Source of the DNA: Escherichia phage vB_EcoM_P54
Reading direction: 5' to 3' (one strand)
Sequence record: PV390658.1
Length of the DNA stretch: 64,000 nucleotides
The notes beneath the pieces were generated by a model. The model was given only the letters and a program-made list of their open reading frames with translations. It had not been told where the DNA came from and ran no database searches. The translations under genes and the position numbers were made by a program. This document shows positions 1,086 to 3,635 of this stretch, one piece after another (the first letter of the stretch is position 1; every line of letters begins with the position of its first letter).

Positions 1086-2630
1086 TTTTATAAAATTTCA
1101 TCGGTTGTCCCAACCTCTGGGTCACCATCATATGTGAATAAAATATCTATCCTTCTTAACAACCTTCTTAAGCTTACTCTCTATATATAGTTATATAGTA
1201 CTATATAGTATCTTAGTATCTATCTAGTGGTCTTAATAGCCCTCTGTATAAACCTTCTAAATAGCCTTCTAACAAGCCTTCTTAACAACCTATACAATCA
1301 CCTTAACCATCCCTCTATACCCTCTTAGAAGCTCCTATACACCTCTTAATCTCTAGGTTACCTATGTTACCCTCTATAGGTGTTCACTAGGTATTACTAA
1401 GCCTCTATATAGACTGTTTTAACAAACTTAACAGGAATATCTTTACAGACCTTATCTCACAAGGTCTAACACGGTATTAACAAGGTATCTTATAAGCCTG
1501 TTTATGCCTGTATTTTTAAAAGACTGTCTAGGTAATTATTCAGAATTTTAAAATTTTTATAAAATAGGACTATCAAGTCATTTTTAGGGTCTTTGAAGGA
1601 ACTCAAAAATATCTGTAGAAGATGTATATCTGCTTGGTAGCCCTTAACATCCCTGTAACATCCCCTTTGCAGAATTTTAAAATATCATTAACAATCTCTT
1701 AACAACTCTCTCAAGCTCTTAACATCTCTTCAGAGGTCTTAACAGATTCTTAACAGAACTAACAAGGCTGTAATAAGTTCTTAACAGTCGATACATGGTC
1801 TTTATAGTCTCTTAACAGATGACTAACAAGAGCTAACAAGTTAATTTTTAAGAGTTATTTTGTTAAGATAATTAACAAGTTCCTAACAAGTGTTTAACCT
1901 TTTTAACAAGCTATTAACATGGTCACTATCTCTTTTCTTATCGTTCCCTTTCTTTCTTAGTGATTCTCTAAATAGCCCTCTTAAAAGCCCTCTATAGCTC
2001 CTTGTAAGCTCTTTTAAGCCTCTTCCTAGTAATTACACCCCAACTATGCAGACACCTTTTTATAAGGCTTTACAGGAGCTTTAAAGGCTATGTCAAAGAC
2101 TCTTACAAGGCTTTTACGTGGTATTAACAGAGATTTAACAAGGGGCTAACAAGTTGCTAACAAGTGCCTTAAAAGCATAACTATGTAGGGTTTGTTAAGA
2201 AATTGTTAAGAAAATGTTAAGGGGGCTAGCATTTACGTAACTTTATAGCTTCTTTTACGTAACTTTGAAGTGACTTTATAGCCCCTATAACATACTTTTT
2301 AGTTACTATCAAGTGGCTTGTTTAGTAGTTCACAAGATAGCTAACGAGATAATAAAGCTTATAACCTTATAAGATTCTTTTAAGCCTCTATAAAGCCCTG
2401 TAAAGAGTTTTTTAAGGTGAGTTAATGCAATCCCTTAAGTTAGGTTGATAAGGCTGTTATAGAGCTTTATAGAGCGTTTAAACGGTTGCCCTTCCCTTTC
2501 GGGTTATGGGCTTATATTTAAGTTGATTTGATAAAAGGTTATAGAGTAAGCTATAGAGTTATTGCTTTTAAGGTCTAGTAAGATTCTGGAAAGGTGAGGG
2601 AAAGGGATTGTATAAGGATTCAATAGACGT
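1086..2630. repeat. ORF-free repeat-rich region: more than 20 copies of YTAACARG-like octamers (both orientations) plus CTCTATA and TTTATAGC repeats
   Basis: No ORF of 60 aa or more on either strand; octamers cluster at 1269-1289, 1689-1921 and 2123-2222 (three inverted copies TTGTTAAG at 2191-2222); bounded by terminators at about 1057 and 2631. Confidence 0.7.
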
Positions 2631-2943: not shown

Positions 2944-3037
2944 TTTTGAATCTCCTAGTTTAAGGACTTTACTTAGTGGGGAAGGTCATTCCCTCCCCGT
3001 TGATTGACAATTTACAGATTTTTGATTGTCTCGTCAA
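2944..3037 (-). promoter_or_regulatory. type A cassette: sigma70-like promoter, 5-prime-UTR hairpin, SD
   Basis: Minus strand: TTGACG (3032-3037), 17-nt spacer, TAAATT (3009-3014), then GGGGAGGGAATGACCTTCCCC hairpin and TAAACTAGGAGATTCAAAA-ATG. Confidence 0.55.
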
Positions 3038-3542
3038 TATCTTTTTCAATATCTTTTAAAGTTTTTTCTAAGTTCTTGATATTGAACGTTAAACCTTCAC
3101 CGAGAGTCTTAGAGTAACCGCTAGGGCGTAAATCATGCAGCTTGATTTCTTCCACTTCAAAGAGACTCACCGCCTCACCATTTACATCGTAGGCCATTGA
3201 TACAGTATTTTCAGGTGCGTTGTAAAACTTGTTTAAGGACTTGATAGAACGTTCATAAGCCATTTTATAGCTATTTAAAAGGTTTTTAACGTGGCTGTGA
3301 ACGTTTTTACACTCATCTAAATAAAGACCTAAAAACATCGGGAGAAGTTCCGCGACAGCTTGCATAAAGTGAGAGACTACAACGGTTGCAACATTACGAC
3401 GATGAACGTAATAAGCCCCGTTTTCTGATTTGGTAATGGTTGCAAAGTGTACCCCATTACAACGAAATTCATAGGTATCTTTAACAGGCTTAGACATTAC
3501 ATTATTTGAACGAATATAGTTGATAGCTTTGAATTTGTTCAT
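3012..3542 (-). CDS. hypothetical early protein (about 177 aa)
   Basis: ORF-track start 3635 reads through the cassette (translates as KVLKLGDSKM); start moved to ATG at 3542 abutting the cassette SD. Confidence 0.55.
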   Translation of the reverse strand: MNKFKAINYIRSNNVMSKPVKDTYEFRCNGVHFATITKSENGAYYVHRRNVATVVVSHFMQAVAELLPMFLGLYLDECKNVHSHVKNLLNSYKMAYERSIKSLNKFYNAPENTVSMAYDVNGEAVSLFEVEEIKLHDLRPSGYSKTLGEGLTFNIKNLEKTLKDIEKDIDETIKNL

Positions 3543-3635
3543 TTTAGAATCTCCTAGTTTAAGGACTTTACTTAGTAGGGAGGTTATTGCCTCCCCGTTG
3601 ATGAGTAATTTACTTGTTTTGATATCTGATTGCAA
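3543..3635 (-). promoter_or_regulatory. type A cassette
   Basis: TTGCAA (3630-3635), 17-nt spacer, TAAATT (3607-3612), conserved hairpin and SD. Confidence 0.5.

Follow-up and report, generated by a model that had tools for sequence, protein, structure and literature searches.

The stretch of Escherichia phage vB_EcoM_P54 DNA considered here (64,000 nucleotides (nt), sequence record PV390658.1, hereafter the window) contains, between positions 1086 and 2630, a block of about 1.5 kb that is devoid of sizeable open reading frames (ORFs) and rich in short repeats. Its central segment, 1636–2226, aligns with the mapped direct terminal repeat (DTR) of related phages and harbors an ordered array of the pentamer TAACA, which together with its flanks is the subject of this account. 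Judged by its sequence, the source of the window is a Felix O1-like myovirus of the genus Felixounavirus. The longest ORFs of the block span 33–39 amino acids on either strand, so that none exceeds 39 amino acids. It is framed by two intrinsic terminators, each composed of a hairpin followed by a T-run. The first, at 1056–1081 on the + strand, closes the rightward genes and is annotated in the relatives ASO1A, Moogle and wV8, while the second, at 2636–2655 on the − strand (read 2655–2636), closes the leftward genes and is annotated in ASO1A and Moogle. The two converge on the ORF-free block, and both neighbouring transcription units stop there. A preliminary description, drawn from the sequence of the window itself, had called the block ORF-free and bounded by converging terminators, and is borne out on both points. 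Its further expectation that 1086–2630 is transcriptionally quiet fits the converging terminators and a chance-level number of promoter matches, and on these sequence features the block would be little transcribed.

The seven ORFs that flank the block have no Pfam match and all fall into PHROGs of unknown function. The region as a whole shares 90–94% DNA identity with many Felixounavirus genomes, comprising phages of Escherichia, Salmonella and Shigella, and is found in about 250–295 Ounavirinae records, the range being set by the query and the E-value cut-off. In nearly all of these records it is without annotation, or carries just terminators, small repeat features or tiny hypothetical ORFs.

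The direct terminal repeat

Because the physical ends of relatives map exactly to 1636–2226, this segment is regarded as the single-copy equivalent of the DTR, present once, as expected of a concatemer junction or of an assembly in which the copies have been collapsed. Its identity and position are shown by homology, and that it forms the DTR of this particular phage is, on the strength of the alignments, very likely. The 1.5-kb block is accordingly the junction between genome units. Experimental evidence comes from phage UAB_Phi87, in which a DTR of 608 bp was established by the Bal31 sensitivity of two restriction fragments together with run-off sequencing (Bardina et al., 2016, PMC4837284). 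The published repeat (Figure S1B, machine-read) aligns, with neither end left over, to window positions 2218–1634 at 89% identity, and the edge motifs in the genome record of UAB_Phi87 are separated by 614 bp, versus the 608 bp published. In phage Pr103Blw a DTR of 581 bp was determined by PhageTerm (PMC8303462); the corresponding record annotates a 581-bp “short direct terminal repeat” at both ends, in two identical copies, which aligns to 2226–1636 at 87%. The sister record UAB_69 carries a 618-bp “DTR” feature equal to window positions 1634–2228. In addition, three records (SeKF_63, I14.1 and the Mooglevirus HP1) have the homolog of 2226 as their first nucleotide, and one (pEP20) has that of 1636. 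In relatives, the ends are thus fixed rather than permuted and recur at conserved sites on both edges (Pr103Blw, SeKF_63, I14.1 and HP1 at 2226; pEP20 at 1636). Compared with the repeats of UAB_Phi87, Pr103Blw, UAB_69 and HP1, the segment shows 87–96% identity, the same converging genes, edges that agree within 0–8 nt and the same length class (558–618 bp). Nothing essential differs, the repeat here being a single copy in the assembly with its ends placed by homology.

Both edges lie within strictly conserved sequence. For the comparison, 12 phages belonging to the genera Felixounavirus, Mooglevirus and Suspvirus were aligned, and across them the distance between the edge motifs ranges from 558 to 614 bp. 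The left edge is spanned by an invariant block of 22 nt at 1623–1644, TGTATATCTGCTT|GGTAGCCCT, which is partly retained in Erwinia phages, and the end-forming cut would fall at 1635|1636 according to PhageTerm-type records or at 1633|1634 according to the run-off sequencing of UAB_Phi87. Across the right edge the same alignment contains an invariant block of 10 nt at 2219–2228, AAGGGGGC|TA, where the predicted cut lies at 2226|2227, or at 2218|2219 by run-off sequencing.

An independent trace of the right end is found in a more distant genus. The record of Erwinia phage vEam_PM_27 (PP079184, locus L017), a member of Kolesnikvirus, starts at its positions 1–8 with TCCGATCT, fused to the homolog of 2226 (...AAAGTGGC). 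These eight letters are what we take to be the reverse complement of the start of an Illumina adapter. The start of the record therefore looks like leftover adapter joined to the true end of the DNA, and a fusion of this kind is the outcome expected from ligation to such an end. The same record contains 418 bp that are identical at both ends, the first copy occupying positions 9 to 426.

A terminal repeat in Felix O1-like phages is a known feature, since it was already suspected in 2010 (PMC3185647), demonstrated in 2016 (PMC4837284) and annotated in several records. Published accounts of it give sequence and length, without comment on an internal TAACA array or on conserved flanks, and no paper was found in the literature that describes the ordered array, the switch of its orientation at the terminus or the strong conservation of the flanks. 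The preliminary description had listed a terminal-repeat or packaging region among several candidates, and this is the option that the mapped ends of the relatives uphold. It had also named, as the finding that would speak against it, termini lying elsewhere together with a region variable or absent in close relatives. The opposite was found: the ends map here, and the region, present throughout the Ounavirinae records counted above, is conserved above its flanking genes.

The TAACA array and its conservation

The segment 1636–2226 contains 24 TAACA cores, 20 on the + strand and four inverted, whereas other 591-bp windows hold a median of 2 (95th percentile 5, maximum 9). Extended to the hexamer TTAACA, 13 copies are observed versus 0.38 expected (p = 4e-16). 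The enrichment is local: the degenerate form YTAACAR has 93 matches in the 64-kb window, with 71 +/- 9 expected by chance, and 25 of the 93 lie in 1156–2209 while the remainder stays at chance level. Considering the whole ORF-free region, 24 of its 34 cores are inside the DTR. The forward cores start at 1645, 1656, 1689, 1700, 1720, 1740, 1751, 1760, 1782, 1813, 1824, 1834, 1873, 1884, 1904, 1915, 2125, 2136, 2147 and 2158, and the inverted ones at 1861, 2193, 2204 and 2215. More than 20 copies of an 8-mer family, clustered at 1689–1921 and 2123–2222, had been reported at the outset; the cluster coordinates proved accurate, with two further copies to be added at 1645 and 1656.

The cores are arranged in an orderly manner. 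Array A (1645–1919, + strand) comprises 16 forward (Y)TAACA(R) cores spaced by 9–11 bp or multiples thereof, with a phasing of approximately 10.25 bp (vector strength R = 0.77, a value reached by 0 of 5000 simulated random placements). It is followed by the centre of the DTR (1920–2120), about 200 bp without TAACA cores, which contains an inverted repeat (1989–2009 / 2067–2087) and CTCTTAAAAGCCCTCTATAGC-type units. Beyond this lie array B (2125–2162, + strand), with four forward cores, and array C (2193–2219, − strand), with three inverted cores (TGTTAA), both at an exact spacing of 11 bp. The last core of array C ends 7 nt inside the right edge and the first forward core of array A begins 9 nt inside the left edge at 1636. 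Repeated short motifs are therefore present near both predicted cut positions, four forward and three inverted cores being found less than 100 bp from 2226 and two cores less than 25 bp from 1636. Furthermore, the two termini of the DTR, each read 5' to 3' inward, start alike with GGTAGCCCTTAACA and GCCCCCTTAACA.

Conservation in the 12-phage alignment follows the motif. Over the five columns of the cores, mean pairwise identity amounts to 0.92 and 78% of columns are invariant, versus 0.77 and 47% for the spacers (Mann-Whitney p = 4e-9), and no circular shift of the core mask equals the observed difference. Length changes respect the repeat unit to a considerable extent, as 14 of the 24 insertions or deletions of at least 5 nt are 10–12 or 22–24 nt long, which corresponds to one or two units. 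Helical phasing and motif-specific conservation lend indirect support to the suggestion, also made in the preliminary description, that the repeats form a protein-binding array.

The layout extends to phages in which little else can be aligned. Erwinia phage phiEa21-4 (Kolesnikvirus) has almost no other alignable DNA with the region, and shows in order the conserved left-edge block, forward TTAACA cores, a gap, and inverted cores ending in ...AAAGTGGC|TAAC. Pectobacterium phage Arno162, with little other DNA similarity to the window, retains a partial layout of few forward and many inverted cores ending near ...AAAGTGGG|TAG.

Unique flanks and neighbouring DNA

On either side of the DTR, the unique remainder of the block is itself ORF-free and well conserved. 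Towards the Moogle and Susp genera, identity in the three non-coding segments amounts to 77–84% versus 66–69% in the flanking coding sequences; specifically, the left flank shows 81–83% against 66–68% in the adjoining coding sequence, and the right flank 77–82% against 67–69%. The identity of the non-coding block being higher than that of the neighbouring genes, the whole block is therefore under stronger constraint.

The left flank (1086–1635) carries CTCTATA and CCTTCT repeats, the latter in units of 12 nt, and seven further TAACA cores. Across the 12 phages of three genera 65% of its columns are invariant, the longest invariant block being TAACAAGGTATCTTATAAGCCTGT at 1478–1501. The palindrome TTTTATAAAA occurs just twice in the 64 kb, at 1086–1095 and 1555–1564, and both copies lie in this flank within blocks that are invariant over the three genera. 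The right flank (2227–2630) contains two TTACGTAA palindromes (2233 and 2255), an invariant block at 2365–2384, CCTTATAAGATTCTTTTAAG, and four copies of TATAGAG at 2458–2558. The CTCTATA-type and TTTACGTAACTTT repeats noted in the preliminary description are real: the region holds six CTCTATA copies, of eight on the + strand of the window, four copies of its complement TATAGAG, of six in the window, and two of TTTACGTAACTTT, at 2232 and 2254. In the right flank of phiEa21-4 (locus L018, 2330–2660), approximately 12 copies of TTAGAAG stand where Felixounavirus has TATAGAG. On the compared sequences, then, the flank repeat appears to differ between genera, with the TAACA core unchanged.

A weak conserved hairpin is located at 2488–2511 of the right flank, on the + strand (GCCC..CCC-TTTC-GGG..GGGC, followed by the T-rich TTATATTT), and has a minimum free energy of -12.3 kcal/mol (z-score -1.9). 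The two arms of its outer stem have changed in concert in ASO1A (GCCA...TGGC), an apparent compensatory change, and the hairpin could be a DNA or RNA structural element of this flank.

Palindromic inserts of 22–26 nt are present at differing sites in the non-coding block of relatives, at the homologs of ~1620, ~1838, ~1862, ~2316 and ~2650 (loci L006, L014, L011, L013 and L001). One of these, GGGATTGGTAACAATACCAATT, is found in UAB_69, with a near-identical insert at another position in wV8, while GATTCGATAGATTC-like inserts are seen in UAB_69, Sf14, Moogle and mio. These inserts resemble very small mobile elements or hairpins.

Two observations concern the surrounding DNA. An element of about 55 nt, AATCTCCTAGTTTAAGGACTTTACTTAGTGGGGA...CCTCCCCGTTG, is present in near-identical form at 2944–3003 and 3541–3600, directly upstream of the start codons of two successive leftward genes, and on the coding strand reads as a hairpin with a ribosome-binding site after it. 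Over the whole window (1–64000), GATC has 0 sites versus 182 +/- 13 expected from dinucleotide-preserving shuffles; avoidance of GATC in the genus has already been reported (Alf5 and VpaE1 papers).

End formation and competing explanations

Taken as one statement, that 1636–2226 is a terminal repeat at the concatemer junction combined with an array for end recognition or packaging is the reading we favour, with reasonable though far from full confidence. For the array considered by itself, a role in end recognition or packaging has somewhat under an even chance. In the proposed scheme, unit genomes would be joined in replicating concatemers at the gene-free block, and the packaging machinery would make the virion ends there. 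Each virion DNA would start at ~1636, run through one full genome and end at ~2226, leaving 591 bp at both ends, and the two DTR edges, each inside an invariant block, would be the sites of cutting or nicking. The (Y)TAACA(R) cores, about one helical turn or multiples of it apart, would constitute a binding lattice largely on one face of the DNA. This lattice would be bound by an oligomeric protein, most likely a putative DNA-recognition (small terminase-like) component, which would in turn position the large terminase at both edges. Two cuts ~590 bp apart, followed by repair synthesis, would then duplicate the single copy at each junction during packaging, so that every packaged genome acquires a complete repeat, in line with the model proposed for T7. 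The unique flanks 1086–1635 and 2227–2630 may serve as accessory cis-acting packaging sequence. Contact of a protein with the cores, the belonging of that protein to the packaging machinery and the duplication by two cuts are steps that we infer from the arrangement of the repeats. A more specific version can be put forward tentatively, with slightly less confidence than the general role of the array: the lattice, conserved from Felixounavirus to Kolesnikvirus, may be a platform on which a T4-like terminase docks through a putative recognition subunit, or to which some other end-binding protein attaches, and the inward-facing cores 7–9 nt from the edges may set the two cuts ~590 bp apart that yield an exact DTR.

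An analogy is offered by T7, whose fixed ends likewise bear a short exact DTR associated with numerous copies of a core of 5–7 nt. In the T7 model, the single repeat copy of each concatemer junction must be duplicated at packaging, as would be the case here, and the terminal repeat is reportedly accompanied by adjoining short-repeat arrays, SRL and SRR, as Dunn and Studier are said to have described in 1983. The left end of T7 carries 15 TAAAG cores in its first 360 bp, three inside the 160-bp repeat and 12 just beyond, and the design of a DTR with a short-core array therefore has a precedent in an unrelated phage. The differences are nevertheless considerable. There is no sequence or protein homology, the Felix-group terminase being T4-like (Terminase_6N/6C); the spacing is 13 bp in T7 versus 10–11 bp here; most T7 copies lie outside the repeat, in contrast to 24 of 34 inside it here; and the counted T7 cores share a single strand, as against the three inverted copies at one edge here. 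The likeness to a T7-type concatemer junction is thus an analogy and not membership.

Short repeats are equally a feature of pac and cos sites, such as the 4 + 3 TGATCA/G hexamers of P1 pac, the pacL and pacR boxes of SPP1 and the R sites of lambda cosB. Like these, the region has several copies of a short motif less than ~100 bp from a cut, some of them inverted (four forward and three inverted beside 2226), and its helical phasing would be compatible with wrapping of the DNA on an oligomeric small terminase. Those sites, however, give rise to permuted headful ends (P1, SPP1) or cohesive ends (lambda), unlike the fixed ends and exact ~590-bp repeat here, with two cut positions ~590 bp apart and many more motif copies. 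Since its relatives have fixed ends with an exact short repeat rather than permuted headful ends, the region is not classed as a pac site. By analogy, recognition may still be similar to that at pac sites. In UAB_Phi87 the large terminase is of the T4-like Terminase_6N/6C type and has been placed in a cluster of Felix O1-like DTR phages (Bardina et al., PMC4837284). Beside it lies a 66-amino-acid gene without annotation, and the next gene encodes DUF7217.

Several points weigh against the packaging interpretation. No recognisable small terminase is found beside the large terminase of UAB_Phi87, the terminase genes lie outside the window, and no binding protein could be named from the flanking ORFs or from the terminase neighbourhood of UAB_Phi87, both of which were searched. 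An overall mirror symmetry about the DTR, which would call for a symmetric two-cut mechanism, was not found. In gapped alignment the left side scores 318 against the reverse-complemented right side and 324 in direct orientation, and the ungapped match at zero offset, 0.292 versus 0.280 +/- 0.018, is within noise. Similarly, ATCTTATAAG and CTTATAAGAT form an inverted pair placed exactly 149 nt beyond either edge, but in relatives the distances are 149–180 and 124–162 nt, so that the exact symmetry is a coincidence. The ends themselves carry some imprecision: there is a discrepancy between the mapping methods of 2 nt at one edge and of 8 nt at the other, and the ends of this isolate are placed by homology to relatives. 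In the Kolesnikvirus phage vEam_PM_27, the 418-bp repeat stops 20 nt inside the conserved left-edge block, and the exact left edge in that genus is consequently uncertain. Lastly, short repeats in helical phase are just as characteristic of replication origins.

This last point leads to the alternative that the repeats are origin iterons, as the preliminary description had also considered. An initiator would bind the phased TAACA repeats and melt a nearby AT-rich stretch, such as the TTTTATAAAA palindromes or 1672–1690, so that replication starts from the DTR and the position at the genome ends is secondary. Clusters of phased direct repeats are a classic origin signature, known from lambda ori and from the iterons of the P1, pSC101 and R6K plasmids. 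The region resembles these in having clustered, helically phased short repeats under selection within ORF-free DNA, with AT-rich palindromes nearby (1086 and 1555), the sole two TTTTATAAAA copies of the 64 kb and both invariant, and in lying between converging terminators. It differs in that the core is much shorter, 5–7 nt at one-turn (9–11-bp) rather than two-turn spacing as against iterons of 17–22 bp, and in the absence of any recognisable initiator gene adjoining it, the flanking ORFs being those without Pfam match described above. A scan of the region for host-factor sites was negative for IHF, Chi and CRP; for DnaA it gave one relaxed match (TTWTNCACA, at 1133) but no perfect box, and for Fis a single degenerate consensus match at 2537. 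GC skew, proposed earlier as a check for an origin, merely follows gene orientation in the window. Moreover, the position coincides with the mapped genome ends of relatives. The orientation of the cores flips exactly at one terminus and the outermost cores are 7–9 nt from the mapped ends, neither of which an origin requires. The origin option has thus gained no support and is considered unlikely. Marginally less probable again is a role after entry into the host, in which a phage or virion protein on the cores would shield the ends from exonucleases, or pair them through the repeat for circularisation or concatemer formation. Given the DTR structure, the array would sit at both ends of every virion DNA; both termini begin alike; and the Felixounavirus Bas63 is without a RecBCD inhibitor (PhageMaP paper). 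Yet no candidate protein is at hand, the region has no Chi sites or other host-nuclease signals, and the likeness of the termini covers just ~10–12 nt and is partly lost in Suspvirus and Kolesnikvirus. As to essentiality data, the PhageMaP library for Bas63 was confined to genes.

Two further explanations were considered. The repeats could have arisen by replication slippage, or matter solely for the shape of the DNA close to the ends, for instance its curvature or stiffness, with no sequence-specific reader at all. In keeping with this, copy number differs among relatives in units of 10–12 nt, and A/T-rich hexamer arrays with an 11-bp period are common in viral contigs, where the control hexamers TACAAT and ATCATA formed as many dense arrays as TTAACA among the matches listed. 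Slippage should, however, homogenise whole units, whereas over three genera the 5-nt core is kept while the spacers drift (0.92 versus 0.77), and in Kolesnikvirus the core persists where little of the surrounding DNA aligns. TAACA is not an A-tract, and strong intrinsic curvature would not be expected from it. This explanation is therefore held to be improbable, and one based on transcription more so, to the point of being very improbable. Under the latter, the cores would act as promoter elements of the -35 type, or a non-coding RNA would be made from the block. TTAACA is one base away from TTGACA, a promoter-like match of 10 of 12 positions starts at 1781, and the conserved hairpin with its T-rich tail at 2488–2511 shows the apparent compensatory change in ASO1A. 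Against this, promoter-like matches number 9 versus 6.0 +/- 2.4 expected, which is chance level, there is no Rfam match, both neighbouring units end at terminators that face the block, and -35-like hexamers 11 bp apart without -10 partners would make no sense as promoters.

The idea of a widespread TTAACA-array system in unrelated phages was dropped, as dense arrays were about equally numerous, among the matches listed, for the control hexamers TACAAT and ATCATA. The scan used the pattern TTAACA-N5-TTAACA-N5-TTAACA. Its listed matches include IMG/VR contigs whose proteins show no similarity to those of Felix-type genomes and whose ORF-free stretches contain phased TTAACA arrays, some at contig ends: L075 (6980–7640), L091 (4290–4500) and L068 (590–830), and L073 (9990–10046). 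Given the controls, chance is a possible origin of these. GGGGGCTAGC, present at the right edge of the Felix-type repeat, recurs in L075, and L091 and L068 have phased A-tracts beside the array.

As regards annotation, the genome of vB_EcoM_P54 should be opened at ~1636 and ~591 bp added to its length. The useful part of the finding is the ordered array, with its strictly conserved 5-nt core, one-turn spacing, orientation flip at one terminus and conserved flanks. As a defined cis element it can be used to look for the protein that recognises DNA for the Felix O1-type terminase, which makes it a modest but practical gain, and it permits tests of how exact short terminal repeats arise in phages other than the T7 group. 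The typing and biocontrol of Salmonella and E. coli make wide use of Felix O1-like phages, and knowledge of the packaging signals bears on transduction risk and on the engineering of these phages. If the interpretation of the array as a binding lattice for end formation is true, it would provide a route to understanding how fixed ends in the manner of T7 are produced by a myovirus whose large terminase is of the T4 type.

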